The notes: a model not told the origin generated them from the sequence alone. A stretch of 44,231 nt of DNA from an uncultured Gammaproteobacteria bacterium (GCA_964457405.1 CAYWEP010000001.1:1-44231), one strand, 5' to 3'; positions 6,872-41,009 are shown, counted from the first letter of the stretch. Numbers and translations are program-made.

Positions 6872-6882
6872 AATAAATTCCC

Positions 6883-11350: not shown

Positions 11351-12457
11351 ATGAAGGTTGCATTTGTTGATCTGAAACGACAAAACAGAATTTATAAGAA
11401 AACTTTTTCTCGTATATTTAGTCAAACATTGGATGAATCAGTTTTCTTGGCCGGGCCCGCAAACGAACGCTTTGAGCAAGAATTCGCAACATTTTGTGGA
11501 AAAAAATTCTGCATCAGCCTCAATTCTGGTACCGATGCTATTTTATTCGCCCTTCTCGCATATGACATCGGACCTGGCGATGAAGTAATTACCCCGACAA
11601 ATAGTTATTTTTCTCCTGCCATGATGATTTCTCAGATTGGCGCCACTCCAATTTTTGTTGACGCTGATCCCAAGAGTGCACTCATTGATGTCAAACAAGT
11701 TCAACGTGCAATATCCAAAAAAACTCGCGCAATTATGCCGGTTCATTTATGTGGTCAGTCGGCAGACATGGATCCCATTATTACTCTTGCAAAAAAACAT
11801 AATGTAGTAATTATTGAAGATGCCTGTCAGGCCCATGGAGCAAAGTACAAGGGCAATGTCGTCCCAGTAACAGAAACAGGTGCATTTTCATTTTACCCAG
11901 GAAAAAATTTGGGTGCTTTTGGCGATGCTGGTGCTGTAGTCACTGATAGTAAAAAGGTCCGAGACGAAATATTAAAACTTCGAAACGACGGTTCCACAGA
12001 AAAATATGTACATACCCAATTTGGCTACAAAAGTAGACTAGATACAATTCAGGCAAAAATTCTGTTGGCCAAGCTCCCTCATCTTGAAGCATGGAATAGA
12101 AATCGTCGTAAAGCTGCTTCAGTTTATAACAAATTTCTTGCCACAATAAAACAAATCACTCTGCCTCAAGAAATGCCTTATGCGTACCACGTCTATCACC
12201 TTTACATGATTGAGTGCGAAAATCGTGATGAACTACAAGCGTACCTTGCGAAAAAAGGTATTACTACTGTTATTCATTATCCAACTCCCATACACCTGCA
12301 AAAACCTTACAGACAACAAGGATTTCACCCGGGCATGTTCCCTGTCGCGGAAAAAAGAAGCAAAAGAATTTTATCTCTTCCTATGTATCCTGAACTACGA
12401 GAAACTGAAATCCGTTATATCTGTCAAACGATCCGCTCTTTTTACTCATCTGGATGA
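11351..12457 (+). CDS. DegT/DnrJ/EryC1/StrS-family PLP-dependent nucleotide-sugar aminotransferase
   Basis: 368 aa. 'GPGDEVITPTNSYF', 'IIEDACQAHGAKYKG' and 'AFSFYPGKNLGAFGDAGAVVT' (containing the active-site Lys) are family signatures, closest by eye to the WecE/QdtB/FdtB/Per-type subgroup. Confidence 0.9.
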   Translation: MKVAFVDLKRQNRIYKKTFSRIFSQTLDESVFLAGPANERFEQEFATFCGKKFCISLNSGTDAILFALLAYDIGPGDEVITPTNSYFSPAMMISQIGATPIFVDADPKSALIDVKQVQRAISKKTRAIMPVHLCGQSADMDPIITLAKKHNVVIIEDACQAHGAKYKGNVVPVTETGAFSFYPGKNLGAFGDAGAVVTDSKKVRDEILKLRNDGSTEKYVHTQFGYKSRLDTIQAKILLAKLPHLEAWNRNRRKAASVYNKFLATIKQITLPQEMPYAYHVYHLYMIECENRDELQAYLAKKGITTVIHYPTPIHLQKPYRQQGFHPGMFPVAEKRSKRILSLPMYPELRETEIRYICQTIRSFYSSG

Positions 12458-13362
12458 AAAAATCAAATCCAACATACCGACTCTGTCCTTTGTGCGGCAA
12501 TACCTACGTGACGCTTGTAGCTAAAGCCACAAGTTTGCCGCCAGTATCTCCAAGGCAAATTCAGGTAACAGAAAAATATTTCGGTTTGCACGGGGATTTG
12601 GTCCGCTGTCAAAAATGCCAATTCACCTATGTTGGTGACAAAAAGTATATAAAGAATCTCTCCTCTTTATATGCCAAAATGAGTGACCAGGTATATCTCC
12701 AAGAAGAAAAAGAAAGGCGTTTAAGTTTTTTGAGAGTTATCACTACTATCGAGGCTCTACGAAAAGGCAAAAAAGGAAAATTACTTGATATTGGCTGCTG
12801 TACGGGCGGTCTTTTAATAGAAGCCAAAAAGCGGGGATGGGTAGTTGATGGCCTCGACCCTTCTTCCTGGGCCTGTAAAACCGCAAGACACCTCCATGGT
12901 TTATCGGTCCACAACACTACTATAGAAGCATATCATTCCAAAAACAATGTTTTTGATGCTATCACGCTTCTTGATGTCTTGGAACACGTTGAAGATCCTG
13001 ATATGTTGATCAGACGGGTACGCTCTATGTTAAAAGAAAACGGCATTTTCTGTATCGTTACACCCAATTACGGCAGCTTCACCGCAAAATTGTTTGGAAA
13101 AAGATGGTGGGGAATCCGCTTAGCTCATCTGTCTTATTTTAATAGAAATGACATTAACAGCCTCATTAAAAAAAACGGTTTGAAGATACTTCATCAAAGT
13201 ACATACGTTCGTTATTTTACCCTTTATTATATTCTTATTCGGCTATTTGCCTTTATCGAAAGAATGAACACAGTAAAGTCAGTACTGAAGCATATCATCA
13301 TTCCACTCGCACTTTTTGATACATTTGAAATATATATTGGCAAAAGGGGTAAGTTATTATAA
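12454..13362 (+). CDS. Class I SAM-dependent methyltransferase with N-terminal zinc-ribbon and hydrophobic C-terminus
   Basis: 302 aa, with an ATGA overlap with the aminotransferase stop. The Cys pairs 'CPLCG' ... 'CQKC' form the zinc ribbon. Motif I is 'LLDIGCCTGGLLIEA'; 'FDAITLLDVLEHV' also fits. The C-terminus 'FTLYYILIRLFAFI...IIIPLALF' is hydrophobic. Confidence 0.8.
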   Translation: MKKSNPTYRLCPLCGNTYVTLVAKATSLPPVSPRQIQVTEKYFGLHGDLVRCQKCQFTYVGDKKYIKNLSSLYAKMSDQVYLQEEKERRLSFLRVITTIEALRKGKKGKLLDIGCCTGGLLIEAKKRGWVVDGLDPSSWACKTARHLHGLSVHNTTIEAYHSKNNVFDAITLLDVLEHVEDPDMLIRRVRSMLKENGIFCIVTPNYGSFTAKLFGKRWWGIRLAHLSYFNRNDINSLIKKNGLKILHQSTYVRYFTLYYILIRLFAFIERMNTVKSVLKHIIIPLALFDTFEIYIGKRGKLL

Positions 13363-13372
13363 CGTGTAAACT

Positions 13373-14125
13373 ATGTTACGCCACCGGACACCAAAAAAGG
13401 TTATCATCATTATGCCCGCGTATAATGCCGAAAAGACGCTTGCCAAAACACTTGCTGACATCCCCAAGGGCGTCGCCGATGACGTTATTCTCGTAGACGA
13501 TGGAAGCCACGATAAGACAGTCGCTGTGGCTAAAAGACTTCGCCTGAAAACGATTGTTCATCCCCAGAACCGAGGATACGGCGGGAATCAAAAAACCTGC
13601 TATACACTCGCCCTGAGTGAAGGTGCTGACATTGTCGTCATGATTCACCCTGACTATCAATATGATAGTTCATTAACAGAAGAGATCATACGGCCCATCC
13701 AAAATCATCGTTTTGATATTATGCTTGGATCAAGAATTCGGACGCGTCAGGAAGCGCTTGCCGGCGGCATGCCTCTGTACAAATATATCGCTAATCGCTT
13801 CTTAACGACTATGGAGAACATCATTTTAGGTCAAAATCATTCGGAATATCACACCGGCTTTCGCGCGTTTCACCGAAAAGTTCTTACGAAGCTGCCTTTC
13901 CATAAATTCTCTGACGATTTCATTTTTGATCAAGAAATTCTCATCTCTGCAGTCTACTCTGGTTTTCGTATTGGTGAAATTCCGGTCCCGACACGGTATT
14001 TTCCGGAGGCTTCGTCTATAAATTTTGCGCGGTCAGTAAAATATGGCGCGGAAACACTCTGGACATTAGTAAAATACATACTGACCTCGGCAAAGATATA
14101 TCACGCCAGAATATTTCCCGCATAA
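13373..14125 (+). CDS. Glycosyltransferase family 2, Dpm1-like (candidate polyprenol-phosphate sugar synthase), soluble form
   Basis: 250 aa. Motifs seen: 'VIIIMPAYNAEKTLAKTLADIP', 'VILVDDGSHDKT', 'NRGYGGNQKT', 'HPDYQYD' (DxD region) and 'GFRAFHRKVL'. Confidence 0.85.
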   Translation: MLRHRTPKKVIIIMPAYNAEKTLAKTLADIPKGVADDVILVDDGSHDKTVAVAKRLRLKTIVHPQNRGYGGNQKTCYTLALSEGADIVVMIHPDYQYDSSLTEEIIRPIQNHRFDIMLGSRIRTRQEALAGGMPLYKYIANRFLTTMENIILGQNHSEYHTGFRAFHRKVLTKLPFHKFSDDFIFDQEILISAVYSGFRIGEIPVPTRYFPEASSINFARSVKYGAETLWTLVKYILTSAKIYHARIFPA

Positions 14126-14138
14126 TATATCTGAATTC

Positions 14139-15662
14139 ATGAAACGCATATTATTGCATGACTGTCTCTACCTATTCATTATCTCAATCACCACCCTTTC
14201 TATTTGGCATCCTCTTACCAAGCTCACATTACAATGGGAATCATATATGTTCCTTAATAGGGAGGGCTACCTTCCTCTATTTACCAACACGTGGAGTTCA
14301 TTTGCAAACTTTGAAGTTCAATCTATGCTTGCTGGAGCATTTCTTTCCAAGTATATCGGCTTAAATATGGCGCTCTATTTTTGGGTCGAAATATTTTTTA
14401 TCCTTATCATAAACATATCTGTATATTTTCTCGTTAAAACACTTACCGACAAGTCACTTACTGCTTTTATTGCGGCGTTTCTTTTTACTGTTTATTTTTT
14501 TGGTATCGGATTTTTTCTTCCGAACTGGTACGCTACGTTTGTTCAACGCGTGATATTCAATCTCCCATTATTACTCCTGAGTTTTTTGTTTTTACACCGA
14601 TTTCTCGCAGAAAACAAAGTTAATTATTACATTATATCAATATCATTATTCTTTCTTTCCATCTTTTTAGCTCAGTTTGGAATTTTATTTTCTTATTCTA
14701 TTATACTTTATTCAATCTATTGGGAAGTGCTTCGGTCATTTCGTATTCGCTCTCTCCTTCGAGGTTTATTAATATCCTTCCCTTACGTTGTTATTGTAAT
14801 TTTCTTCTTACTAATCCAACAAAAATTTGGGGAAAATGTTGGTTCAAAATATAATTTATTCTATTTTTTGTTTCATCCTGGAACGTATCACTATGTAGAA
14901 GGGGTAGCCCGCCAACTCGTGTATATGTCGCAATATCCTTCCGTTGTTCAAGCCATGAAGTCAGGGCGTCATCCATTGGCATTCACCGACCCAGTTTCAA
15001 CATATAAATTCGTTTTTCCTATCTTATTAACCTATGGCATGGGCTCCATTCTTATATGGGTAAGGGGGAAAGAGTATCGGCCGCTTCTTTTAACTATTGT
15101 TTCCGGTATTGTTATTAGCCTATTTATAAATATTCTCTTAGACCGATTTGACTTTAGGAGCGCAGCGGGGGTGAATCGGTATTATTATTACCCATCTATC
15201 CTCCTCTCAATGTATTGGGCCTTACTTTTAACCACAATTGTCAAAAGGGGAAAGTTTATTATCATTGGAGGCGCTTTGTTGGGATTTTTTCTCGTTAATG
15301 CGGCGCTCTTTCGGCAATTTTTTGGCGATTTACATCAGTATTCCGTACCAACAGCGCAATTATACCAGTACATCGTACGTAATTTTGATCAATTACCCCC
15401 TCATTCCTATGTCATCGTAGGCCCTACCGCTGATTTTGGCCCTTATGAAACGACGTTTATAACGGAACAGCTTGGCGAAAAGCGGGGTATAACATTTAGC
15501 ACCGAGAATGCATCATACCCGAAGGGAAAACCGCCGCCAACTGCAATAGACGTATTGAAACTCACTTATGACAAACAGTGTAGCTGCGTACAAAAGGAAA
15601 TACTAAAAAGGAACTGCAACAATAACGAATGTACCTGGTCGTCTAAGAATAATCTGGACTAG
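14139..15662 (+). CDS. Polytopic membrane protein, unassigned family 'B', paralog B1
   Basis: 507 aa with many hydrophobic segments. It shares 'FLFLHRFL', 'FHPGTYHY...QLVYMSQYP', 'NRYYYYPS' and a C-terminal 'FITEQLG ... CSC' with 19284..20753 and 20765..22255. Its last 60 nt overlap the convergent gene 15603..16493. Confidence 0.5.
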   Translation: MKRILLHDCLYLFIISITTLSIWHPLTKLTLQWESYMFLNREGYLPLFTNTWSSFANFEVQSMLAGAFLSKYIGLNMALYFWVEIFFILIINISVYFLVKTLTDKSLTAFIAAFLFTVYFFGIGFFLPNWYATFVQRVIFNLPLLLLSFLFLHRFLAENKVNYYIISISLFFLSIFLAQFGILFSYSIILYSIYWEVLRSFRIRSLLRGLLISFPYVVIVIFFLLIQQKFGENVGSKYNLFYFLFHPGTYHYVEGVARQLVYMSQYPSVVQAMKSGRHPLAFTDPVSTYKFVFPILLTYGMGSILIWVRGKEYRPLLLTIVSGIVISLFINILLDRFDFRSAAGVNRYYYYPSILLSMYWALLLTTIVKRGKFIIIGGALLGFFLVNAALFRQFFGDLHQYSVPTAQLYQYIVRNFDQLPPHSYVIVGPTADFGPYETTFITEQLGEKRGITFSTENASYPKGKPPPTAIDVLKLTYDKQCSCVQKEILKRNCNNNECTWSSKNNLD

Positions 15663-16493
15663 CCAAAATGCAATGACGAAAGGAGCACCAAGTGTCATCC
15701 AAAAAATACTCCAAAAAACCGCGGGAAGATTCATAACTGAAGACCCATCAGCTCGCTTGACTAATTTTTGAAGTGCAGCATTGGTGCCACTTGTCGCATT
15801 AATAAATGTCTGGAGAATTCCAGTCGGATGATGTTCAAGCGACCAATAGTCAATTTTTATGATGCGAAATCTTTCTTGACGGAGAAGTTTTGTAATGCTT
15901 TTGGGGGTAAAGTGCCAAAGATGATACTGTGGTACGAGGTGAAACCAACGATTACCAAAGAATCGATATTCCAAACTATCTATATTAGGAACAGCAACGA
16001 CAATGCGACCCTCTGGTTTAAGATTCTTCCTAGCCGCAGCTAAATATTTCCATGGTGAATTCATATGTTCCAAAACCTGCCAAAAGCTTATGATATCAGC
16101 GTTTCCGCCTCGCATCCGCAGAAATTGCTTATCGGAAAGAGCGTGTATACCTGCTCTCATCATGTGTTTTCTTGCCGCTTTTGAAATTTCTACACCAATC
16201 TTTGTTTGTGCTCGAATCGTCTGGAGATATCCTCCATCACCGGCTCCCACATCGATCCAGGTATTCTTTTTTGCGCTCGAAACGTAGCGAGTCCTAAGTA
16301 AATAAAAAAATTGCTCAATAGGGATAAACAGTTTTCGTGCAAGAGAGGATGAAGCTTGATAATACTCATCGCTGTATATCGATTTCGGAAAATCCCTACG
16401 TTTCGCAAGTGTGCAGCTGCAGCAGTAGAAATACCGCATGTCTCCGAACAGAGAATCTTCAAATTCTCGGCCACATAGTGGACATAGCTTCAT
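15603..16493 (-). CDS. Class I SAM-dependent methyltransferase with N-terminal zinc-ribbon and C-terminal TM segment
   Basis: 296 aa. The zinc ribbon is 'MKLCPLCG...YFYCCSC'. Motif I is 'WIDVGAGDGGYL'; 'ADIISFWQVLEHM' also fits. The C-terminus 'AVFWSIFWMTLGAPFVIAFWLVQIIL' is hydrophobic. The architecture matches 12454..13362. Confidence 0.8.
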   Translation of the reverse strand: MKLCPLCGREFEDSLFGDMRYFYCCSCTLAKRRDFPKSIYSDEYYQASSSLARKLFIPIEQFFYLLRTRYVSSAKKNTWIDVGAGDGGYLQTIRAQTKIGVEISKAARKHMMRAGIHALSDKQFLRMRGGNADIISFWQVLEHMNSPWKYLAAARKNLKPEGRIVVAVPNIDSLEYRFFGNRWFHLVPQYHLWHFTPKSITKLLRQERFRIIKIDYWSLEHHPTGILQTFINATSGTNAALQKLVKRADGSSVMNLPAVFWSIFWMTLGAPFVIAFWLVQIILRRPGTFVIVAVPF

Positions 16494-16521
16494 GCGTGCT
16501 ATTTTACTACAATAGGACTAC
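16494..16521. promoter_or_regulatory. 28-bp divergent spacer with back-to-back -10-like hexamers 7-8 nt from each ATG
   Basis: TACAAT at 16508..16513 (+) is followed by 8 nt and then ATG 16522. TAAAAT on the minus strand (plus-strand coordinates 16501..16506) is followed by 7 nt and then ATG 16493. Alternative reading for the + gene: 'AGGA' at 16514..16517 could be a very close Shine-Dalgarno. Confidence 0.35.
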
Positions 16522-17508
16522 ATGAATCATAATGTAAATCGAGTTGGCCTGGGAACATACCCTTTTTCTGGTGTCTATGGTCCAATTTCACCAGAACTAG
16601 CCAAACTGATAGTTATGCAGTTTATTGAAAAGAAAGGGTATTATATAGATACAGCACCGGTTTATGGATTCGGGCAGGTCGAAACACTACTTGGAGAAGC
16701 ACTCCGTGACTATTCAAGAGAAAGCTATTATATCGCAACAAAATGTGGATATATTGACGTTGAAGGAAAAACCTTTCGGTCGGTGCAAAAATCGGCAAAG
16801 TATAAAGACATAATTGCTGAATGCGAAAAATCTCTTAACAGGCTCCACACTGACTATATTGACCTCTATTTCGTTCATTGGCCAGATCCAAATACTCCAT
16901 TCGATGAAACAATGAAAGCTCTTCTAAAACTACGGGCTGATGGCAAAATACGAGAGATAGGAGTATCAAATGTAAACTTAGAAGAACTTCAACGGTATAA
17001 CAAGGGAGGTGCGGTCAGATTTGTGCAGAACCGGTTCAGCCTTTTAAACAGAAGTATTTCGAAAGAATTCGAAGAATATATGATCGATCATTCTATACAG
17101 CTTGTGCCTTATCAAGTTATTGATCGCGGTCAACTAACGGGCACGGTATTTGAGAGAATCGGGAACCTTCGTGACGGTGATATTCGGAATGGCAGAAGTG
17201 ATTGGCAACCAGAAAAGTTAGAAGTTATATCAGGCTGGGTAAAAACTTCGCTATCACCCATTGCTAGGCGATTAGGCATTACCCTTGGTCAACTGTCAAT
17301 CGCATGGGCATTACATCAAAAATATCTGGGCTTTGTAATAGTTGGATTGACAAACCCTGAATACATTAAAATCAATCTAAAGGCAAACTCAATTACATTA
17401 AGTAGAGAGATAATTGAGGAAGTAGATGAGGCATATAAAAAGCTCGAAAGCACTATTCAATCACTGTACAAACAGTCAATACGAGAATTTAGGGGCCTGT
17501 CTGACTAG
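16522..17508 (+). CDS. Aldo/keto reductase family oxidoreductase
   Basis: 328 aa. 'GLGTYPFSG', 'YIDTAPVYGFGQVETLLGEAL', 'IDLYFVHWPD' and 'IREIGVSNV' are standard AKR motifs. Confidence 0.85.
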   Translation: MNHNVNRVGLGTYPFSGVYGPISPELAKLIVMQFIEKKGYYIDTAPVYGFGQVETLLGEALRDYSRESYYIATKCGYIDVEGKTFRSVQKSAKYKDIIAECEKSLNRLHTDYIDLYFVHWPDPNTPFDETMKALLKLRADGKIREIGVSNVNLEELQRYNKGGAVRFVQNRFSLLNRSISKEFEEYMIDHSIQLVPYQVIDRGQLTGTVFERIGNLRDGDIRNGRSDWQPEKLEVISGWVKTSLSPIARRLGITLGQLSIAWALHQKYLGFVIVGLTNPEYIKINLKANSITLSREIIEEVDEAYKKLESTIQSLYKQSIREFRGLSD

Positions 17509-18565
17509 ACATCTTATACAATGCTTCAAAAAATGTACTCTGAATTGGGTGATGGCGCTGAAAAATTGTGCGCCACTTTTTAGGAATAGGATACTCTTTT
17601 TGTGTAATATGATCGTTATCTTTTGTACGGGATCTTAGCCATTGCTTCGTATAAAAATACCCCTTCGTCAAACGATCAACATGAGCAATATAATTTCGTA
17701 TCTGTTTACGCGTCATTTCATGGAATGAACTCACGGTAAGAATATGATCGAAATATTTTTCAGGCAGATATTCAATCTGATGAGCCATAAGAAATCTTAT
17801 CTTCGCAGACTCGAACTCATTTTTAACTTTCTTAAACGATCCGAATGGTCTAAAGTAAAAAATTTTCTCTCCAAAAAAGACTTTTGACAAATAATCCTGC
17901 GATATAAAAAGGGCTGGCGGAATATCTATGATAGTATAAGAAATTTTCGGAATCGCTTTGAGAAATACATAGGCCAGCCTTCCGTACCCCGCACCGATCT
18001 CGGCTACATCCATACGCTTATTTAAGTCAATTTCTTTCGTTATGCTGTAAAACTCGTGAACAGAATTACATAAGTCCTGAGAGAGAGATCTTTTTTTATA
18101 AGCGACAAGAAAGGGATTACCGATAAGCGGCTCTTCTATTTTGCTTAAGATTTTTAGAATGTCCTCTCGGGAAACGTACTCCCATAGCGAGGCGATAAAA
18201 ATTTTATATATCAGCGCAGAGACTATACCAAACGATTCCGCATATATAATGCGAAGAAATAAATTAGGGGATTCCTTATCAAAACGCATCTCGCTTCTTG
18301 GGTTAATAAAATGACTTTCAAAAATTGGCGCAAAATTTCTTCTTCTCATCTCTAAAAGAATCGGTGATAATTGATGTCTTAGGATACCTAAAATTCCCCA
18401 ATTAAAATACTTCAAGTTAATCGATCTTTTAAAATTATCCAAACCACCAGAAAACAGTCGTTGCGTATGAGTTCTTCCTGCCTCTATCCAATAATTTGAG
18501 GGCTGATACACCTCTGGTGCTTTTTTGAGTTCCTCTAGCATTTCTGTCAATACCTTTTTATTCAT
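17489..18565 (-). CDS. Putative sugar O-methyltransferase (class I SAM fold)
   Basis: 358 aa. The N-terminal 'YQPSNYW' and motif I 'VAEIGAGYGRLAYVFLKAIPKISYTIIDIPP' match my recollection of the family annotated as 'putative sugar O-methyltransferase' (NCBIfam TIGR04371-like). This is recalled, not searched. Its 3' end overlaps the AKR gene by 20 nt. Confidence 0.6.
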   Translation of the reverse strand: MNKKVLTEMLEELKKAPEVYQPSNYWIEAGRTHTQRLFSGGLDNFKRSINLKYFNWGILGILRHQLSPILLEMRRRNFAPIFESHFINPRSEMRFDKESPNLFLRIIYAESFGIVSALIYKIFIASLWEYVSREDILKILSKIEEPLIGNPFLVAYKKRSLSQDLCNSVHEFYSITKEIDLNKRMDVAEIGAGYGRLAYVFLKAIPKISYTIIDIPPALFISQDYLSKVFFGEKIFYFRPFGSFKKVKNEFESAKIRFLMAHQIEYLPEKYFDHILTVSSFHEMTRKQIRNYIAHVDRLTKGYFYTKQWLRSRTKDNDHITQKEYPIPKKWRTIFQRHHPIQSTFFEALYKMSSQTGP

Positions 18566-18580
18566 AGGGGTGATGACTTG

Positions 18581-19282
18581 TTATGTTATCCAAATTTTCC
18601 AAATGTAGTAGAATTTTCGTATCGCCCACCAGGCTTTCTTTGTAAAGGTTCCGGAAACAGATGAAATACCAATGCGTGATCGAAAATGAATTGGGATCTC
18701 AATAAAATTAACGTTTCCTTTAGCTGCAACCAACACCCATTCTGTTGCAAAAATTCCATCTGCAGAATTACATTCTGTGGAAATATGCTCCCATGCTTTT
18801 TTAGAAGTTAGTCTAAGTGTACACCCAAGATCTGTAAGCGGAGAACACGCATATAGATACGTAACGACTTTTGCAAGAAAGACGTCAAGAATTCTTTTAA
18901 TATATGACATATCAGAATCCTTGTGGACAAGCGAAAGATGAGTTCTCGATCCAAAAACCATAGGAAAATCGTCACTATAGGCAAGGAGCTTGATGACATC
19001 ACGACCGTCAAAGGAACCATCTGGCTCAGCGACAATCAAAAGATCACCCTTCGATGACGCCAGTCCCTTTCGAATGGCATGACCATAGCCTTGCCGATTT
19101 TCATGAACTAGAATTGCCCGAGTTTTTTTCACTTCCTCTCTGGTTCCTTTTTCCGCGTTATTATCAACAACGATAATTTCATCAACATAACCCGTGCCAT
19201 CAAACTCCTCTATTAATTTCCGTATTGACTTTTTTTCCCTGTAGGTGGGGAATATAACGCTGACTTTTTTTGATTTCCACAT
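18581..19282 (-). CDS. Glycosyltransferase family 2, Dpm1-like (candidate polyprenol-phosphate sugar synthase), soluble form
   Basis: 233 aa. Motifs seen: 'VSVIFPTYREKKSIRKLI', 'IIVVDNNAEKGT', 'NRQGYGHAIRKG', 'VAEPDGSFDG' (DxD-equivalent region) and 'VFGSR'. Confidence 0.8.
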   Translation of the reverse strand: MWKSKKVSVIFPTYREKKSIRKLIEEFDGTGYVDEIIVVDNNAEKGTREEVKKTRAILVHENRQGYGHAIRKGLASSKGDLLIVAEPDGSFDGRDVIKLLAYSDDFPMVFGSRTHLSLVHKDSDMSYIKRILDVFLAKVVTYLYACSPLTDLGCTLRLTSKKAWEHISTECNSADGIFATEWVLVAAKGNVNFIEIPIHFRSRIGISSVSGTFTKKAWWAIRKFYYIWKIWIT

Positions 19283-19283
19283 A

Positions 19284-20753
19284 TTACTTTACTTTGGTTT
19301 CTTTTACACAGTTGCAGGCGGCATCATACGCTATCGTTAAAACATGTTCATAGTCCGGTATTTTAGTTTTCCAATCTCTATAGGCCATGCTTTCGGTATC
19401 ATATGTGACAGTACCATTTCCGAGTTGCTCCGTAAAAAAATGAGCCTCTTGCACCCAGAATTCTGGATATGTAGCAACCACAAGCGTGCCAGGCTTGAGC
19501 ATATCACGGGTTTTTATCACATGTGAAAATAATGCCTTTGTGGATTCATTCCATTGAAATGTCCGACGGAATATATAATCGATGACAGTTACATTGATAA
19601 TATAGTACGCTATAAGGATACCGATACCGAGTAGCCTGCGAACGTCCTTGTGTCGAAGAAAAACGTACCAGGTGAATATTCCCCAAAAAATACCTAAGAA
19701 AAAGTTAGGGTAATATAAATATCTATTGGAATCTGGCACTATGACCGAGTCCAACCTGACGTACGCGTTGAGAAAAAAAATTGCTGGCACAGAAGTGATA
19801 CACGTAAGAAGGAGTGCTCTGAACTTTGGAAGGAATTTATAAAGGGTAACGAACGCGATGATGTAGACGAGCAGTACAAAAGGGATACTGGCTGCTGCAT
19901 GACGAGCGTCTATATCTCTGAGCGGACTTTCAGAAAAAAGATTGGGCAAAATAGAGCTATATTGAGACCAATGTGCAAGTTGGAGTGCAATTGCACGAAA
20001 ATAATCGTATTTGGCAGGATTTAAGACAAATTCAGTTAGCGTCCTACCTGGTCCCCAGTCTCCGTAAGTTGATCGTTGCAACAAAACTATACTTGTACTT
20101 GTAATAAAATACGCTGCTCCGATAAGTATTCCTTTCCACGTCTCTTTTTTCCAAGAACGCACCGTGCACCACCAGATAGGATAAAGTACAAAAGGAGGAG
20201 TCAGAAGAAGCGCCAAGTGACCAAGCTTAAGACCCACAAGATATAGAACCAAAGAAAATGCGAATATTTTTTTCTTTCCTGTCGTGAGAAATAAGTGGAG
20301 AAACAAAAAGCTAGCGAGTACGAATGGTATATTGGTAACGCGTTCTAGGAAAAAACAATAACAATGAGTGCCATACATATTCCAATTTCCGAAATAGCTA
20401 GTCCCTGCAATAAGTGTCGAAACAAAGGCTATACTGGAAGATTTTGTAATGACGCGTACCAAAACATAAAAAAGTAAAACAAGAAGCAATATAAATACCA
20501 ATTCAAACCATAGATAGCCGCGTATATTGGCCCCAAAGAATTTAGGTAAAATTGCTCCTAAGATAGAAGCGTCTAACTCTAATCCCGTTATCCAGTGCCG
20601 TTGACCCCAAAATCGCTGTTGTTCAGCCGCAAGCATATGAACAAATCCGTCGCTTCGAATAACAATCTCCGGCAAAAGCCGCCACGTGTATCCAGTAAGC
20701 ACAATAGATAAGAGAAGGAAAATAATGTCCAAAGACTTACCTTTAAAAAGCAT
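19284..20753 (-). CDS. Polytopic membrane protein, unassigned family 'B', paralog B2
   Basis: The ORF track start at 20786 is a GTG that overlaps the upstream gene. ATG 20753 (MLFKGKSLDIIFLLLSIVLTGYTW...) gives the same N-terminal length as paralog B3 and removes the overlap. Shared motifs are 'SDGFVH', 'HCYCFFLER', 'FLFLHLFL', 'NRYLYYPNFF' and 'FFTEQLG...CNC'. Confidence 0.5.
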   Translation of the reverse strand: MLFKGKSLDIIFLLLSIVLTGYTWRLLPEIVIRSDGFVHMLAAEQQRFWGQRHWITGLELDASILGAILPKFFGANIRGYLWFELVFILLLVLLFYVLVRVITKSSSIAFVSTLIAGTSYFGNWNMYGTHCYCFFLERVTNIPFVLASFLFLHLFLTTGKKKIFAFSLVLYLVGLKLGHLALLLTPPFVLYPIWWCTVRSWKKETWKGILIGAAYFITSTSIVLLQRSTYGDWGPGRTLTEFVLNPAKYDYFRAIALQLAHWSQYSSILPNLFSESPLRDIDARHAAASIPFVLLVYIIAFVTLYKFLPKFRALLLTCITSVPAIFFLNAYVRLDSVIVPDSNRYLYYPNFFLGIFWGIFTWYVFLRHKDVRRLLGIGILIAYYIINVTVIDYIFRRTFQWNESTKALFSHVIKTRDMLKPGTLVVATYPEFWVQEAHFFTEQLGNGTVTYDTESMAYRDWKTKIPDYEHVLTIAYDAACNCVKETKVK

Positions 20754-20764
20754 AGTTCTTATCT

Positions 20765-22255
20765 TTATTCTTTTCCTTTCAGCCACACCTCACGGAGACA
20801 GTTGCATGATCGTCTATAGTGCAAACGGACGACGTTTGTTGAAGACAATGCGGTCCGTTCCCACATGCTGGTCTCTGAAAACGTGTTTTCCTCGGACATC
20901 ACCGTTACTCCGAAAGGCTTCAGCTGTTCAGTAAAAAATGCTGCCTCATAAACACCCACTTCATCATACGGCGCAACAATTAATGTGTTTTTCGCAAATC
21001 CGCGAGCCTTCGTTTGTATATAATCATACACCAATTTTGTCGGTCGATTAAAACGCATACTCAGAAGATATGCATCTCGTATAAGAACCATATTCATGAG
21101 GACGTACCCTGCGACAAAAAGAGAGGCAACTATCCGAAATAGTTTTTTTCGACTTATTAGAAGCACCATAATAAAGAGAGTCCAAAACAAAGACAGAAAC
21201 ATCGTCGGGTAATATAAGTATCTATTGGCTCCTGCTTGGTACAGTACGTCATACTGTCCAAAAAGCGCATTTACATAAAAAATACTTATAGTGCCAAAAA
21301 CCATTGTTACTAGAAACGCTCGGTACTTTGGGAAAAAACGGAATATTATGTAGGAAACCAAGATATAGAGAGCCATAATATATGGCGTTATCGCCTCTAT
21401 GGCTCTAAAATTGTCGGTTTCCGGCTGCAATCCTTTTAATTGAAAGATATCAGCAATGAGCAAGGGATATTCCGTCCAATAGACGAATTGACGTATAATT
21501 TTTTGCGGCCAAAGATACACCTCGGGATGAAAAAAGAAGTCAACTGGCGACCACTTAAGTTGAAACCCGGATTCATGAACTCGTTGTATAAGGACAAAAA
21601 AAATGGTTATCCCAACATACGTGGCACCCAAAAGCCAATTTCTGATTCCCTTCCCTCTTTGCAAAAATAATGCCCAGCAAACGGGATAAAAGAAAAAATA
21701 GGCAGTAACAAATACGCTCCAGTGTCCCACACCAATACCCAAAAAATATAACATGAGCGAGACTATTCCGTCCCGCCTTTTTCTATTCTCTAAAAAACGA
21801 TGAAGATATACCGCCGCAGGCAACAAAAAAAGGACAGGAATAATGCGTTCGAGAAAAAAACAATAGCAATGTGAAGAGTACATACCCCAGTTGCCGAAAT
21901 AATTGGTAGCAAAAAAAACTGAGGCGATAAATGCGAAGATAGGCTTTTTAAATATCGTTATCGCGAGCCAATAAAATAATGCGTGGGTGGCCAGCATGAC
22001 AATATACGCCGTCCACCAATACAGCGCGATATTGATCCCGTAGAGTTTAGAGAAAAACCAACCAAGTGACACAGCAGACAGCTCAAACCCGGTATAAAAA
22101 AAGTCGCGACCGAAAAATTCCCGCTGTGTCTTGGATATAAGGTACACAAAACCATCTCCCCGTATGACTTGCTCTGGGATAAAACGCCATACATAGGCTG
22201 ACAGAATAAGGAGAAGGAATAGGTAGACTACATGAGTGCGCTTAGCTGCGTTCAT
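20765..22255 (-). CDS. Polytopic membrane protein, unassigned family 'B', paralog B3
   Basis: 496 aa. Shared motifs are 'GDGFVY', 'HCYCFFLER', 'YLHRFL', 'FHPEVY...QFVYWTEYP', 'NRYLYYPTMF' and 'FFTEQLK...CNC'. It lies in tandem with B2. Confidence 0.5.
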   Translation of the reverse strand: MNAAKRTHVVYLFLLLILSAYVWRFIPEQVIRGDGFVYLISKTQREFFGRDFFYTGFELSAVSLGWFFSKLYGINIALYWWTAYIVMLATHALFYWLAITIFKKPIFAFIASVFFATNYFGNWGMYSSHCYCFFLERIIPVLFLLPAAVYLHRFLENRKRRDGIVSLMLYFLGIGVGHWSVFVTAYFFFYPVCWALFLQRGKGIRNWLLGATYVGITIFFVLIQRVHESGFQLKWSPVDFFFHPEVYLWPQKIIRQFVYWTEYPLLIADIFQLKGLQPETDNFRAIEAITPYIMALYILVSYIIFRFFPKYRAFLVTMVFGTISIFYVNALFGQYDVLYQAGANRYLYYPTMFLSLFWTLFIMVLLISRKKLFRIVASLFVAGYVLMNMVLIRDAYLLSMRFNRPTKLVYDYIQTKARGFAKNTLIVAPYDEVGVYEAAFFTEQLKPFGVTVMSEENTFSETSMWERTALSSTNVVRLHYRRSCNCLREVWLKGKE

Positions 22256-23307
22256 TACAATTGGGTTTTATACCAACGAAGTGTTCGCGATAATCCTGTC
22301 TTTAAATCTATTTTTGGGGAATAGTCAAGAGCCTTTCGAATCTTTGTTAAATCTGGACACCGTCGTCGGGGTCCTTCCAAAGGATAATCTTGCGGGTAGC
22401 CAACTGATTTGATGGTGATTTTATTTAGAAAAAGTTCGCTGACCATTCGAGCTAAATTCATCATATTAACTTCAGGATAGTCATTTCCCACATTATATAC
22501 CTCTCCGTTCATTTTCGACAAAAGCACTTTGAAGAATGCGGTAACCGCGTCTGTAATGTAACAAAACGTTCGGGTTTGATTTCCGCCAACATGTACTGGA
22601 AGAGGAGCCTTTTTTAGTGCATTCGTAAGAAATGATGGTATTACTCGATAATCATCGAGTCGCATGCCCGGTCCATAGACATTAAATGGCCGCACTATTT
22701 TGACCGGTATTCCAAAACGCTGGTGATAGATAAGACTCATTGTTTCACCTAATCGCTTTGATTCATCGTAGCACGCACGTGGTCCAATTGAGGAAACATT
22801 TCCTGGATATGTTTCTGGAGTTGGTACAAAATTTGGATCAGGATCTCCGTAAACTTCACTCGATGAAAAAAATAGAAAACTCTTTACTTTTTTTTCTCGT
22901 GCCAGCTCAAGCATATTTCTCGTGCCAAGAGTTGCCACTTCGAGCGTTTCGAGCGGATACCTCATGTAATACACGGGAGAGGCAATTCCAGCAGCGTGAA
23001 TAATATAATCAATTGGTCTGTCGTACACTAATTTTGTTCGGACATCATGCTGAATAAATAAAAAGTCACTATCTTTTCCGAGAAAACTGCCATGCTGTTT
23101 TGTGCCTGTTATGTAGTTATCGACGCTGATTATTGTGCATTTTTTCTTCAAAGAACTGTTAAGATGCCACAGAGTATAAAGCAAGTATTTACCTAAAAAT
23201 CCGGATCCTCCAGTTATAAGAATGGTTTTTCCAGAAATATCACGAGCCTCATGTTTTATCTCTTTGGCAATTTTTTTTACGTCTTCTAGGATAACTCTAT
23301 TGGTCAT
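22255..23307 (-). CDS. NAD-dependent SDR of the UDP-glucuronate decarboxylase (UXS) / ArnA-C-terminal-like group, copy 1
   Basis: 350 aa. 'ILITGGSGFLGKYL', 'SSSEVYGDP', 'CYDESKRLGE' and 'RPFNVYGPGM' match the UXS-type motifs (STSEVYGDP / YDEGKR / NTYGP). The substrate cannot be told by eye. In this context it could equally be a 4-ketoreductase. Confidence 0.7.
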   Translation of the reverse strand: MTNRVILEDVKKIAKEIKHEARDISGKTILITGGSGFLGKYLLYTLWHLNSSLKKKCTIISVDNYITGTKQHGSFLGKDSDFLFIQHDVRTKLVYDRPIDYIIHAAGIASPVYYMRYPLETLEVATLGTRNMLELAREKKVKSFLFFSSSEVYGDPDPNFVPTPETYPGNVSSIGPRACYDESKRLGETMSLIYHQRFGIPVKIVRPFNVYGPGMRLDDYRVIPSFLTNALKKAPLPVHVGGNQTRTFCYITDAVTAFFKVLLSKMNGEVYNVGNDYPEVNMMNLARMVSELFLNKITIKSVGYPQDYPLEGPRRRCPDLTKIRKALDYSPKIDLKTGLSRTLRWYKTQL

Positions 23308-24545
23308 ATGACTTTCGGGGTGGGAACAGGAATGATAAATTTTCCTCCGAAATCCTTATATTTTTTATGTATAGTCATAATTGAATCTGCAAAATTCCAG
23401 GCCAAGATTAAAACATAATCTGGTTTTTGTACGTAGAGTTGTTTTGTCGCAACCACGGGAATATGAGTTCCCGGCGTAAACAAACCGACTTTAAATGGAC
23501 TATCATCAACAATAAAATCGAGTGTTTCTTTTCCTAGATGAAAGTAGTGAAGTAGCGTGGTTGATTTGGCCGGCGCTCCATACGCTGCTATACGCTTCTT
23601 CTGTTTTTTGAGCTTGGTGAGCAGCGTCGTTAAATCTGTTTTGTTTTTCCAGATTTTTTTTGCAAACACTCTATATGTGTCAATGTCATGAAGCTTCATG
23701 CGCTCCTCCAGGTCGAGAAACCTCTGCACTGACTTCTTCGTAGTGAATTTCGCGCCTTCTAGGCATACGAACAGTCTTACCGACCCGCCGTGAACCGGTG
23801 TTTTGACAACATCGAAAATCCGCATGCCGAAACGCCGAAAAAACCGGGCAAGCGGCCGGAGAGAGAGATACGAAAGGTGTTCATGATACACGATGTCAAA
23901 TAATTTTTTTTCAACCATGTCTCCGTTATACGGTGCCTCTATGACAAAGACGCCTTCGTTGTCAAGAAGCTCATGGACGGCGCGCATTATCTCATCCAAA
24001 TCATGAATGTGTGCAAATACATTGTTGGCCGTGATGACAGCTGCCTTCCCATGCTTTTTTGCAATGCGTTTGGCCACATTGACGTTGAAAAAACTGGATA
24101 ACGTTGGAATTCCTTCACGGGTGGCGCGGGCCGCAACATTTCTAGCAGGATCTACTCCCAAAACTTTTGCCCCCAAAGCCTTAAACGGCCGCAGCAGTAC
24201 CCCATCGTTACTTCCCATTTCCACGACTAAATCACCCTTTTTCAGCTGGAAACGCGAAAAAACCGAACGCGCGTACTCTTCAAAATGAGCGACCGTCACT
24301 TTTGACGTCGACGATACCCAGACGTAGTGACGAAAGAGAATCTCCGGATTAACCACATGGCTTAATTGGAGCTGCCCGCAGCGAGTACAAAAATTTACCT
24401 TGAGCGGAAAAAAATCCTCTGCCTTACGAAGCTCGCTTTTTTTCAGAAATGAATTTGCCGGCGGCGTTTGGCCGAAATCAAGCACTTGGTGAAGCTTTGA
24501 ATTTCCGCATAGCCGACAGGAGGTAGTGACCGTGACTTTTTCCAT
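23304..24545 (-). CDS. NDP-hexose C-methyltransferase (TylC3/NovU-like; zinc-binding N-domain plus class I MT plus C-methyltransferase C-domain)
   Basis: 413 aa. The N-terminal Cys pairs 'CRLCGNSKL' ... 'CTRCGQLQL' are followed by 'VVEMGSNDGVLL'. The long C-terminal domain ('AAYGAPAKSTTLL', 'FIVDDSPFKVGLFTPGTHIPV') matches the layout I associate with Pfam Methyltransf_13/_14 sugar C-methyltransferases. Confidence 0.8.
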   Translation of the reverse strand: MEKVTVTTSCRLCGNSKLHQVLDFGQTPPANSFLKKSELRKAEDFFPLKVNFCTRCGQLQLSHVVNPEILFRHYVWVSSTSKVTVAHFEEYARSVFSRFQLKKGDLVVEMGSNDGVLLRPFKALGAKVLGVDPARNVAARATREGIPTLSSFFNVNVAKRIAKKHGKAAVITANNVFAHIHDLDEIMRAVHELLDNEGVFVIEAPYNGDMVEKKLFDIVYHEHLSYLSLRPLARFFRRFGMRIFDVVKTPVHGGSVRLFVCLEGAKFTTKKSVQRFLDLEERMKLHDIDTYRVFAKKIWKNKTDLTTLLTKLKKQKKRIAAYGAPAKSTTLLHYFHLGKETLDFIVDDSPFKVGLFTPGTHIPVVATKQLYVQKPDYVLILAWNFADSIMTIHKKYKDFGGKFIIPVPTPKVI

Positions 24546-24560
24546 TTTCCATTTGTATCA

Positions 24561-24953
24561 TTACGGGACAATCGTGACGCGCATGGTATCTTCCTCGTAG
24601 GCATCCTGTTTTCGCTTCTCCGTGGTAAAAGCATACAACACAGTGTCTTCCAAAAATTTCACGGCATGAACGATGTCGGGACCCGTGTAAACTAAATCAC
24701 CGGGTCCCAGAACAACCATTTCTATTTTTGCCTTCGGGTCATTTGCAGGCTTTTCGGAATATTCACACTTTCCGCTTTCCACATAAAGGCAATGGGAATC
24801 CCTCTTGTGATAGTGGTTGGACCGTACGGTTCCGGCTTTGCTCGTGATACGCAGGACAACGCGAAAAACAAAACCGTCCTGATCAACAACTCGGGCAATG
24901 CCGCCCCGGTCGTCGACAAATTCGTCCGTAACATGCGTCACACGGATAGCCAT
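24561..24953 (-). CDS. Small cupin-fold protein, probable NDP-4-keto-6-deoxyhexose isomerase/epimerase (FdtA/WxcM-C-like)
   Basis: The ORF track start at 24959 is a TTG; the first ATG is at 24953 (MAIRVTHV...). 'DDRGGIARVV' and 'GTVRSNHYHKRDSHCLYVESG' resemble the DERGxL / RGxHxHK pattern of sugar ketoisomerase or epimerase cupins. The gene sits directly between the 4,6-dehydratase and the C-methyltransferase. Confidence 0.5.
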   Translation of the reverse strand: MAIRVTHVTDEFVDDRGGIARVVDQDGFVFRVVLRITSKAGTVRSNHYHKRDSHCLYVESGKCEYSEKPANDPKAKIEMVVLGPGDLVYTGPDIVHAVKFLEDTVLYAFTTEKRKQDAYEEDTMRVTIVP

Positions 24954-24962
24954 AGGCAATCA

Positions 24963-25964
24963 TTATGCAAAAAATGACTTCCGAAAGTCAATGATCGATT
25001 GCTTGATCGAGGACTTTTTCCACCACCATTCGTTCGCTTTATACCATTGCACCGTTTCCTGGAGCCATCGTTCAAAGCCGTGTTTGGGCTTCCAACCGAG
25101 CTTTCGGATTTTTGTGTCATCGAGCGCATAACGAAAATCGTTTACTGCACGGTTCCATACAAAATCGATCCAGGATTTATCCTTTCTCAGAATTTTGAGA
25201 ATATGGAGTGTAATCTCCAGGTTTGTTTTCTCTTCTCCGCCGACGCAATAACTTTCCCCGATTCTTCCTTTTTTCAACACGATATCAATGGCCCGGCAAT
25301 GATCCACCACAGCAAGCCAGCTGCGGATATTCTCGCCCTGACTCATAAGCGGCGCTTTTTTTTCGGTCAGAAGTCTCGTGATAAATCGGGGAATCAGCTT
25401 TTCCGGATCCTGGTACGGACCGTAATTATTTGCGCAATTGGTGATTGTTATCGGCAATCCGTACGCGGTATAGTACATTTTGACGAGTAAATCCGATGCA
25501 GCCTTAGACGCGGCATACGGGCTGCGCGGCTGGAGGGGTGATTTTTCATTAAAGGGCGGATCGTGCGGTCCAAGCTCTCCATACACTTCGTCGGTCGATA
25601 CGTGGTGAAACCGCTTCCTTCCGTGGCGCAGACATGCGTCCAAGAGTACCCCCGTTCCCAAAACATTCGTCTGAACAAAAATCATGGGGTCCTCAATCGA
25701 ACGATCCACATGACTTTCTGCAGCAAAATGCACAACGGCGTCGGCTTCTTTTATGGCAAAATTTACATCTGCCCTGTCATTGATGTCGCCTTTCATGAAG
25801 GTATAGCGGGGATTTTTTTCAACGCTGTGAAGGCTCTCTCGTCTTCCCGCATACGTCAGTTTGTCCAAATTTATGATTCGGTCCCGGGGATAGCGCCCAA
25901 GCCAATAGAGTATAAAATTTGCGCCGATAAAACCGGCGCCGCCGGTCACTAGAAGAGTTGCCAT
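24963..25964 (-). CDS. rfbB: dTDP-glucose 4,6-dehydratase
   Basis: The ORF track extends to 26078, but 'MATLLVTGGAGFIGANF' starting at ATG 25964 is the canonical N-terminus and leaves a 53-nt gap to the upstream gene. 'HVSTDEVYG', 'PYAASKAASDLLV', 'ITNCANNYGPYQDPEKLIP' and 'RSWLAVVDHC' are RfbB/RmlB signatures. Confidence 0.9.
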   Translation of the reverse strand: MATLLVTGGAGFIGANFILYWLGRYPRDRIINLDKLTYAGRRESLHSVEKNPRYTFMKGDINDRADVNFAIKEADAVVHFAAESHVDRSIEDPMIFVQTNVLGTGVLLDACLRHGRKRFHHVSTDEVYGELGPHDPPFNEKSPLQPRSPYAASKAASDLLVKMYYTAYGLPITITNCANNYGPYQDPEKLIPRFITRLLTEKKAPLMSQGENIRSWLAVVDHCRAIDIVLKKGRIGESYCVGGEEKTNLEITLHILKILRKDKSWIDFVWNRAVNDFRYALDDTKIRKLGWKPKHGFERWLQETVQWYKANEWWWKKSSIKQSIIDFRKSFFA

Positions 25965-26017
25965 TCCAAAAAAAATTCTAGCCGAAAAAGACCGAAATAG
26001 CAAGCCGGAAGCCCCGA

Positions 26018-26743: not shown

Positions 26744-26758
26744 ATCCTGGTTCGTATT

Positions 26759-27487: not shown

Positions 27488-27574
27488 GAGCGTATTATAA
27501 ACAAACTCGTTTCATACACAAGCAGAGGCTCCTATGAGTGCACCGGAGAAGTTTTTTGTGCTACTATACGGCGT
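27488..27574. promoter_or_regulatory. 87-bp divergent spacer with -10-like hexamers 6-7 nt from both ATGs
   Basis: On the minus strand a perfect TATAAT (plus-strand coordinates 27494..27499) is followed by 6 nt and then ATG 27487. On the plus strand TGcTACTAT (27559..27567, an extended -10-like element) is followed by 7 nt and then ATG 27575. Neither gene has a Shine-Dalgarno-like purine run. Confidence 0.4.
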
Positions 27575-30319: not shown

Positions 30320-30326
30320 AGAATAG

Positions 30327-40999: not shown

Positions 41000-41009
41000 A
41001 CAGAAAAAT

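Follow-up and report, generated by a model that had tools for sequence, protein, structure and literature searches.

Three open reading frames (ORFs) in a 44,231-nucleotide stretch of DNA from an uncultured Gammaproteobacteria bacterium (GCA_964457405.1, CAYWEP010000001.1:1-44231; the whole stretch is referred to in the following as the window) encode polytopic membrane proteins, here called B1 (14139..15662, plus strand, 507 aa), B2 (19284..20753, minus strand, 489 aa from its ATG) and B3 (20765..22255, minus strand, 496 aa). We propose that B1–B3 are probably inverting-type GT-C (GT-CA) glycosyltransferases that act in an extracytoplasmic system installing rare deoxy-sugars made by the locus itself, and that they belong to an orphan family without a name.

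An earlier note, made from the sequence alone, had listed the three ORFs and aligned them by eye over their whole length. All three were found where the note had placed them, and BLASTP gave identities of 28–32% with E-values of 9e-49 to 1e-92: 29% between B1 and B2 (E = 9e-49), 29% between B1 and B3 (E = 3e-57, residues 10–490) and 32% between B2 and B3 (E = 1e-92, end to end). B1, B2 and B3 are full-length paralogs, with a similarity far above chance. Every motif quoted by the note was recovered in a three-way alignment. (F/Y)LH(R/L)FL, (H/N)P..Y.......Q(L/F)(V/A)(Y/H)(M/W)(S/T)(Q/E)Y, NRY(Y/L)YYP and F(I/F)TEQL(G/K) are common to the three proteins. WR..PE.VIR(S/G)DGFV and HCYCFFLER are found in B2 and B3; the B1 counterparts are ..QWESY, with Glu at the position of the Asp, and NWYATFVQRV. 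The acidic residue is thereby E34 in B1, D35 in B2 and D34 in B3. B2 and B3 are of an HCYC plus CNC subtype, and B1, without HCYC, keeps a CSC. The Cys-x-Cys (CxC) motif is thus present in all three proteins, although it lies 8–25 residues ahead of the C-terminus and not at the very end, as had been stated.

Outside the window, the nearest orthologs of the three paralogs are 64%, 63% and 67% identical, compared with 28–32% for their neighbors in the window. The closest ortholog of B2, which scores 616.9 bits against the family hidden Markov model, is P0055 at 63%, and the orthologs of B1 are 53–64% identical. Since each paralog is closer to an outside ortholog than to its neighbors, the triplication is old and the copies are specialized. 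The expansion to three copies described by the earlier note was therefore present but not recent, and a distant fourth relative was found at 1582..3393.

Predicted fold, topology and conserved residues

AlphaFold2 models were generated for B3 from a 48-sequence alignment and for B1 from a 142-sequence alignment, yielding predicted local distance difference test (pLDDT) values of 89.6 and 93.6 and predicted TM-scores (pTM) of 0.91 and 0.93, respectively. In the B3 model there are 11 long transmembrane (TM) helices; the loops that follow TM1 and TM7 are structured, and residues 420–496 form a small α/β domain. The layout of the B1 model is the same, with 11 TM helices and a C-terminal α/β domain. 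In both models the helices are arranged as 7 + 4, followed by the C-terminal outer domain of ≈75–100 aa.

When the models were compared to the PDB with Foldseek, ranks 1–19 for B3 (ALG12, STT3, PglB, DPY19, AftA, Pmt4 and Emb) and ranks 1–24 for B1 (STT3, PglB, AglB, DPY19, ArnT, Pmt4 and EmbC; AftD also matched) were all GT-C enzymes. The top match of B3 was ALG12 (9s6t; E 2.2e-4, TM-score 0.48/0.49, 498 columns, 479-residue chain). The GT-C matches of both models had probabilities of ≈1.0, TM-scores of 0.35–0.49 and identities of about 12%, and the highest-ranked matches outside GT-C were transporters of the major facilitator superfamily (MFS) type, with probabilities below 0.25 and TM-scores of ≈0.1. 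No WaaL, Wzy or SEDS/RodA-type structure was among the best 50 Foldseek matches listed for either B3 or B1. As modeled, the fold class is clearly GT-C, and the combination of TM-scores below 0.5 and ≈12% identity indicates that no solved structure is a close relative. The earlier note had proposed this comparison as a check and had considered an undescribed GT-C clade as one possible identity; the confident matches of the two models, which were to GT-C enzymes only, point the same way, as do the outward placement of the acidic residue and of the C-terminal domain (below) and the lack of a curated family.

The orientation in the membrane was assessed by counting Lys and Arg residues over 179 full-length family members, using the loop boundaries of the B3 model. 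Lys plus Arg amounted to 26–46% in the six predicted inner loops and 1–13% in the outer loops. By the positive-inside rule, the N-terminus is inside, followed by 11 TM helices and a C-terminal domain on the outside. Both the DGFV loop and the CxC domain are accordingly predicted to face outward, which was a question raised by the earlier note.

Over the same 179 members (B3 numbering), the residues conserved throughout the family are W23, [D/E]34-G35, Y79, Y131, R137, Q256, Y297, N329, R345-Y346, P350, W358 and N388. The acidic residue in the first loop that the note had picked out as typical of GT-C enzymes, together with a soluble C-terminal domain, is retained as Asp or Glu in 169 of the 179 members and is followed by G35 in 162. 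R137 and R345 are each found in 178 members, N388 in 168 and Q256 in 162. Outer loop 1 (EL1, residues 23–75) consists of 3–4 short helices, and [D/E]34 is in the first of these (H33–39 in B3, H33–36 in B1); R137 lies within EL2 and R345 within the TM9–TM10 loop. The polar and charged residues conserved family-wide ([D/E]34, R137, Q256, R345-Y and N388) are all predicted to be on the outer face. This is where the active sites of GT-C enzymes lie, and by analogy the conserved residues match the expected placement. A compact diagnostic signature can be derived from them, consisting of [D/E]-G-[F/Y] behind TM1, the invariant Arg of outer loop 2 and the invariant R-Y of the TM9–TM10 loop.

The cysteine motifs behave differently. 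HCYC (in B3, residues 129–132 in outer loop 2; 21860..21871, minus strand) is present in 54 of the 179 members and CxC (in B3, residues 484–486 in the C-terminal outer domain; 20798..20806, minus strand) in 77; B2 has both at equivalent positions. Both are subfamily traits and not family-wide. In 52 of the 54 members with HCYC, CxC is present as well, and 25 members, including B1, have CxC without HCYC. The co-occurrence suggests a metal site or a disulfide clamp between the loop and the domain, although the statistic is confounded by phylogeny.

B2 has an alternative GTG start at 20786, giving a 500-aa protein that overlaps B3. In the public protein collection, B1 appears as a 471-aa product (P0198) with an apparent start at M37; TM1 and E34, the putative catalytic residue, would be lost with that start. 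The longer ORF, which begins at 14139, is supported by homologs that cover 95–97% of the 507-aa query and by pLDDT values of 89–98 for residues 1–40. The 3' end of B1 overlaps a convergent methyltransferase gene (15603..16493, minus strand) by 60 nt, and the B1 tail past about residue 491 has low model confidence and no counterpart in B2 and B3.

Family distribution and relation to known GT-C enzymes

The earlier note could not place the three proteins. At the sequence level this proved accurate for B1–B3 themselves, which had no credible Pfam-A or NCBIfam match by hmmscan, even at E ≤ 10; weak matches to DUF6328, Wzz and TIGR01098 were dismissed as noise. A search of the PDB sequences with a profile made from a 48-member family alignment (A2) gave no matches, and a 142-sequence profile gave only three chance-level matches (E > 1). 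A word-indexed search of 5.8 billion clusters yielded 50 relatives with B3 as the query, none of which had a Pfam domain or a name, and 12 relatives with B1. The single name obtained for the family from any source was "hypothetical protein" (Candidatus Daviesbacteria). When 1.84 billion representatives were searched by hmmsearch with the 48-sequence profile, 236 proteins were found at E ≤ 1e-3, including 141 at E ≤ 1e-30, nearly all of them ≈470–520 aa long. Patterns of the HCYC subtype were found in GTDB species genomes of two Levybacteria and one Gottesmanbacteria, and in one 16-kb contig of a metagenome-assembled genome (MAG) labelled Gammaproteobacteria. The genes of this contig make up the Microgenomates-type cassette, so that it is probably mis-binned; L001 (CAYSOR010000011.1), a contig in an "uncultured Gammaproteobacteria" MAG that is probably mis-binned, contains two complete cassettes of this type with 62–80% identity to the window genes. 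The family is small and, as far as sampled, confined to genomes and metagenomes of Microgenomates, which belong to the candidate phyla radiation (CPR).

A sequence link to a known family was found among the orthologs of B1. One of these, P0204, matches Pfam PMT_2 (PF13231) with 27.3 bits over residues 64–203, just above the gathering threshold of 26.1 bits, which qualifies the note's view of an unplaceable family. B1, B2 and B3 did not reach this threshold and had no PMT_2 match at E ≤ 10. PMT_2 was absent in seven of the eight B1 orthologs scanned, and the 48 A2 members gave one sub-threshold match (E 0.005). By hhalign, a 178-sequence family profile matched a profile of eight PMT_2 proteins from the window and related loci with 85% probability (E 5.9e-6, 153 columns), and the A2 profile did not align to one PMT_2 protein of the window (probability 2.5%). 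The match to PMT_2 is confined to TM2–TM7, which, like the 7 + 4 helix count, would fit a 7-TM module joined to a variable module. No Pfam match at E ≤ 10 was found to Wzy_C, O-antigen_lig, EpsG, YfhO or GT87 in the three proteins, the 48 A2 members or 10 distant members; a confident assignment to YfhO, Wzy_C or PMT_2 was what the earlier note had named as evidence against a new family. The family thus appears to be a very divergent branch of the GT-C clan, outside PMT_2 as currently defined.

Among the PDB matches, ALG12 is the one that most resembles B3 over the whole chain. ALG12 and ALG9 are mannosyltransferases of the GT-CA class that depend on dolichyl-phosphate-mannose (Dol-P-Man), and both combine a conserved module of seven TM helices with a variable module of four and a luminal domain at the C-terminus; in ALG12, the catalytic base, E35, belongs to the initial helix of luminal loop 1, and three arginines, including one from the TM9–TM10 loop, bind the Dol-P-Man phosphate (PMC13503287). 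The likeness of the family to ALG12 and ALG9 (CAZy GT22) includes the 7 + 4 + domain plan seen in the models, the correspondence by topology position of E35 with D/E34 and of the TM9–TM10 Arg with R345, and the use of a sugar donor on a lipid monophosphate, which in the family is suggested by its GT2 partner (below). However, identity in the structural alignment is only 12%, there is no GT22 Pfam match, the profile searches of the PDB did not recover ALG12, and it is absent from the B1 Foldseek matches listed. The family is also bacterial, and has a small α/β C-terminal domain with CxC and an invariant R137 in EL2.

The PMT_2/ArnT-type enzymes (GtrC-like, GtlB, CsdD and GacL) provide the sole link at the sequence level. 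ArnT (5f15, 5ezm) was among the structural matches of B1, and in this group, too, GT-A and GT-C enzymes are encoded side by side as pairs (PMC8035078). The family differs from PMT_2 in its motif set and in its length of ≈490–510 aa, compared with 546–756 aa for the local PMT_2 proteins.

GT2 partners and the glycan island

B1 and the B2/B3 pair each have an adjacent gene for a glycosyltransferase of family 2 (GT2). GT2a (13373..14125, plus strand; 250 aa, Pfam PF00535) is 13 nt upstream of B1, and GT2b (18581..19282, minus strand; 233 aa, PF00535) is 1 nt downstream of B2, in the same operon direction. Both lack a TM helix; the maximum hydropathy of GT2a is 1.01. The best solved relatives of GT2a are the Dol-P-Man synthase of P. 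furiosus (5mlz) and ArnC, and its best NCBIfam matches are AglJ, PpgS and Dol-P-hexose transferase, all below cutoff. For GT2b, the best matches were 5mlz and ArnC in the PDB, and AglJ and Dol-P-hexose transferase (haloarchaeal) in NCBIfam.

A natural protein of 742 aa, P0155, consists of a GT2 domain fused to the N-terminus of the family domain. This GT2 domain shares 34% identity with GT2b (E 7e-27), and the topology of the junction agrees with an N-terminus in the cytoplasm. The pairing is also kept between loci: GT2b orthologs (38–81% identity) adjoin family members in the related loci L001–L008, and a pair made up of a GT2 (252 aa) and a B1 ortholog recurs in L009 and L010. Consequently, an ortholog of GT2a or GT2b adjoins the family copies in L001–L010, every locus examined at full flank. 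The earlier note had suggested mapping distribution and synteny, and this recurrent pairing, in a small family sampled from Microgenomates, was the outcome. We propose that GT2a is a polyprenyl-phosphate-sugar synthase that would feed B1, and that GT2b would do the same for B2 and B3.

The window is one long glycan island. Upstream of GT2a and B1 are genes for a DegT-type sugar aminotransferase (11351..12457, plus strand; PF01041, E 7e-112) and a methyltransferase (12454..13362, plus strand; Methyltransf_23). Between B1 and GT2b are the convergent methyltransferase mentioned above (Pfam), an aldo-keto reductase (AKR; 16522..17508, plus strand; Pfam) and a NanM-like sugar O-methyltransferase (17489..18565, minus strand; TIGR04371, 131.8 bits vs. 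a cutoff of 44). On the other side, a short-chain dehydrogenase/reductase (SDR) of the epimerase/reductase type (22255..23307, minus strand; Pfam Epimerase) is co-directional with B3 and overlaps its start, and is followed by an NDP-hexose C-methyltransferase with TylC3-type domains (23304..24545, minus strand; Methyltransf_13 and Methyltransf_14), a cupin (24561..24959, minus strand; Cupin_2) and a dTDP-glucose 4,6-dehydratase (24963..26078, minus strand; TIGR01181, 430.8 bits vs. a cutoff of 365.1). The cupin and the dehydratase are presumably the entry steps of a 6-deoxyhexose pathway, and the SDR and C-methyltransferase are likely to belong to the sugar-donor pathway as well. Judged from these annotations, the surrounding genes indicate a tailored 6-deoxyhexose donor.

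The arrangement is largely retained elsewhere. Related loci have 1–3 tandem family copies, typically with a tail of NanM-like O-methyltransferase, AKR, methyltransferase and DegT genes. The order C-methyltransferase, SDR, family member, GT2b is kept in L001, L004, L006 and L007, the methyltransferase/AKR/NanM-like block has the same order and orientation in L008 and L011, and a DegT-family gene adjoins in L001 and L003. In L011, which encodes a distant member (P0208), the gene order equals that of the segment from B1 to GT2b in the window, and the contig ends within the ORF that occupies the GT2b position.

The distant fourth relative in the window (1582..3393, minus strand) is a polytopic protein of 603 aa without a Pfam or NCBIfam match. 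It was matched by the A2 profile in hhalign with 96.2% probability (E 2.3e-9, 344 columns) and has an ortholog in L006 at 14288–16090 (36.6% identity). Beside that ortholog, L006 has a further weak family match at 16087–17754 (34.6 bits). More proteins than the 236 representatives may belong to the superfamily. Three PMT_2 (GT-C) genes, all on the minus strand, are found at 36202..38250 (682 aa), 38266..40335 (689 aa) and 41010..42650 (546 aa). With B1–B3 and ORF 1582..3393, this makes at least seven GT-C-type membrane proteins in 44 kb, in addition to many cytoplasmic GT1, GT2 and GT4 enzymes. Family members have flanking PMT_2 genes in L005, L006, L008 and L011 as well.

Several other features of the island were observed. 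ORF 40439..40999 (plus strand, 186 aa), considered as a flippase and rejected, encodes a secreted protein with a signal peptide and a weak DUF5667 match (E 0.04). In L005, the family is flanked by genes of this type (1–86 and 6847–7512), and the family member P0169 carries a DUF5667 domain at its C-terminus, facing outward; a role of DUF5667 proteins as partners or acceptors is conceivable. A NodU/CmcH-type carbamoyltransferase gene (5060..6871, minus strand; Carbam_trans_N and Carbam_trans_C) lies amid GT2 and methyltransferase genes, suggesting that the glycan of the island may contain an O-carbamoylated sugar. The GC content is 0.48–0.49 at ≈24000..32000 and about 0.37–0.41 in most of the remaining window. 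The high-GC stretch contains the dTDP-glucose dehydratase, several GT2s, a methyltransferase, a UDP-glucose/GDP-mannose dehydrogenase and an SDR. The same genes are found in synteny in L007 and L009, so that a recent horizontal transfer is not an obvious explanation.

Proposed function, alternatives and significance

In known systems of extracytoplasmic glycosylation, a GT-A enzyme charges the lipid, a flippase translocates it, and a GT-C enzyme transfers the sugar to a surface polymer (PMC11127046; PMC8035078). Their GT-C enzymes often lack a Pfam domain, as do GltB, CsdB and YkoS, and soluble GT-As may need a membrane partner (PMC8035078; PMC11127046). GtrA–GtrB–GtrC, CsbB–GtcA–YfhO, GacI/J–GacK–GacL and C. 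youngae ORF15–ORF14–ORF12 share with the window the logic of adjacent GT2 and GT-C genes. The last of these systems founded CAZy family GT136, which shows that an orphan GT-C can do so (PMC11127046; PMC8035078). The window differs in that no flippase gene is present among the 37 ORFs scanned, in the 1–3 tandem copies per locus with four relatives in the window, and in its donor, which is probably a tailored 6-deoxyhexose and not Glc, Gal or GlcNAc. GtrB, CsbB and ArnC have C-terminal TM helices, which the window GT2s lack. GacI is likewise a soluble variant of GT2, but no GacJ-like small membrane partner is evident here, and a GT2–GT-C fusion is found instead.

Another TM-less GT2 that feeds a GT-C, in this case to decorate a cell-wall glycan with an amino sugar, is the mycobacterial polyprenyl-P-GalNAc synthase PpgS, acting with Rv3779. 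PpgS is the second-best NCBIfam match of GT2a (E 1.9e-18), although its 66.7 bits are far under the equivalog cutoff of 370. No sequence link between the family and Rv3779 was seen, although no direct comparison was made.

We propose the following sequence of events for B1–B3. First, the enzymes of the locus (the dTDP-glucose 4,6-dehydratase, cupin, C-methyltransferase, SDR, DegT aminotransferase, O- and other methyltransferases and AKR) would make at least one rare NDP-6-deoxyhexose, modified by C-methylation, amination or O-methylation; the identities of these genes were observed, and the chemistry is what they would be expected to carry out. Second, a TM-less cytoplasmic GT2, presumably GT2a for B1 and GT2b for B2 and B3, would move the sugar to polyprenyl phosphate while probably docked to its GT-C partner from the cytoplasmic side, as suggested by the natural fusion. 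Third, the lipid-linked sugar would be flipped by a protein outside the gene set seen in the window; such a flippase may be encoded elsewhere. Finally, the GT-C would hold the donor phosphate on the outer face via R137 and R345, by analogy with ALG12, ArnT and PMT, and the carboxylate in the first loop (D34 in B3 and its equivalent in B2, E34 in B1) would act as the general base, transferring the sugar to a surface glycan, protein or lipid. This mechanism is proposed because D/E34 and R345 parallel the positions in ALG12. A polyprenyl-phosphate-linked donor is inferred from the adjacent or fused GT2 and the outward-facing pair of invariant arginines. What distinguishes the three ancient paralogs is most likely the donor sugar, the acceptor site or both.

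Several observations weigh against this proposal. The TM-scores to solved GT-C structures are all below 0.5, with large root-mean-square deviations. Position 34 is Asn, Gln, Leu or Val in 10 of the 179 members, and D/E34, R137 and R345 are equated with known catalytic and phosphate-binding residues by topology position rather than by superposition. The matches of the GT2s to polyprenyl-P-sugar synthases are far under the equivalog cutoffs, so that the donor type is deduced indirectly. No flippase (GtrA, Wzx/Polysacc_synt, MATE or SMR) was found by Pfam among the 37 window ORFs, and there was no membrane ORF in the gaps at 10098–10490 and 40336–41009. Among the related loci, a Wzx-like gene was found in L005 only.

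A more far-reaching version, which we consider rather doubtful, is that the family is a GT-C lineage specific to Microgenomates/CPR in which the GT-C and the TM-less synthase form a physical complex, as the P0155 fusion would suggest, that couples donor synthesis, translocation and outward transfer without a separate flippase. The paralogs (1–3 tandem copies and up to four relatives per locus) would then write a combinatorial code of rare C-methyl, amino and O-methyl deoxy-sugars onto a surface component specific to the CPR, possibly the secreted DUF5667 proteins found beside the genes and fused to one member, and HCYC and CxC may form a metal or disulfide clamp particular to the lineage.

It is unlikely that the proteins are mainly non-catalytic, keeping the GT-C fold while serving as an anchor or activator of the TM-less GT2, in the manner of GacJ–GacI or DPM3–DPM1, and/or as a flippase for polyprenyl-P-sugars. 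Such a role would suit GT2 partners without a TM helix, the fusion in which the GT2 runs straight into TM1 of the family domain, and the lack of a flippase gene in the window, and the recognizable PMT_2 GT-Cs in the same loci could perform the transfer. However, an anchor would be expected to constrain the cytoplasmic face, whereas conservation is highest on the predicted outer face, at the positions where a GT-C active site would be expected. Three to four ancient, specialized paralogs per locus, each with its own orthologs, also fit specialization for donor or acceptor better. Anchoring and catalysis are compatible, and anchoring of the GT2 is part of the glycosyltransferase model proposed here.

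We regard as quite improbable that B1–B3 are oligosaccharyltransferases of the STT3/PglB/AglB type, which transfer a preassembled glycan en bloc from polyprenyl diphosphate to protein (N- or O-linked). These enzymes dominate the Foldseek lists, chiefly for B1, and also hold ranks 2–12 for B3, and the cytoplasmic GT1, GT2 and GT4 enzymes of the window could build a lipid-linked oligosaccharide. Their TM-scores, however, are 0.36–0.48, no better than that of ALG12, and the three proteins and the 48 A2 members have no Pfam STT3 match; nor do B1, B2 and B3 contain a WWD(Y/W)G-type motif. The outer C-terminal domain of ≈75–100 aa compares with several hundred residues in the matched oligosaccharyltransferase chains of 640–870 aa, the outer face is marked by two invariant arginines and not by an acidic, metal-binding DxD/ExD set, and the conserved or fused partner resembles monophosphate-sugar synthases.

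The same partner speaks against a polymerase or ligase of the Wzy/WaaL/BP-Pol type acting on polyprenyl-diphosphate repeat units, which is very unlikely. A polytopic protein of ≈500 aa with outward-facing, conserved Arg, Tyr and His residues in a polysaccharide locus might suggest such an enzyme, and the earlier note had offered a new polymerase or ligase type as its other option. This option lost ground: there was no Wzy_C, O-antigen ligase or EpsG match in Pfam at E ≤ 10 for the three proteins or the 48 A2 members, the confident Foldseek matches are all GT-C with no WaaL, Wzy, RodA or other SEDS structure among those listed, the remote sequence link is to PMT_2, and the family is paired with or fused to a GT2 like Dpm1 and ArnC, that is, a polyprenyl-monophosphate-sugar synthase-like enzyme. 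Finally, transporters or permeases unrelated to glycosyl transfer are also polytopic helical bundles, and MFS and other transporters appear low in the Foldseek lists, but with probabilities of 0.03–0.25 and TM-scores of 0.09–0.17 vs. 1.0 and 0.35–0.49 for GT-C, and given 11 TM helices, long structured outer loops and an outer C-terminal domain, this explanation has almost no likelihood.

B1–B3 therefore represent a new family within a known kind of enzyme and a known type of system. What is particular here is a Microgenomates orphan with a compact, ALG12-like 11-TM architecture, a Cys-bearing outer domain, a TM-less and sometimes fused GT2, ancient paralogs, and no flippase nearby. The CPR, or Patescibacteria, are uncultivated episymbionts with reduced genomes, whose cell surface mediates attachment to the host. 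A full-text literature search on GT-C enzymes or surface glycosylation in CPR, Patescibacteria or Microgenomates found no relevant paper. The present analysis gives a testable function to a set of "hypothetical proteins" and describes glycan islands in Microgenomates that combine at least seven GT-C-type genes with rare-sugar pathways in 44 kb. Biochemical confirmation would probably make the family the founder of a new GT family in CAZy, as happened with GT136, and structural studies and glyco-engineering would gain a minimal 11-TM GT-C scaffold with a natural donor-synthase fusion. These findings leave the established logic of extracytoplasmic glycosylation as it is; their value lies in the surface biology of the CPR and in the classification of GT-C enzymes.

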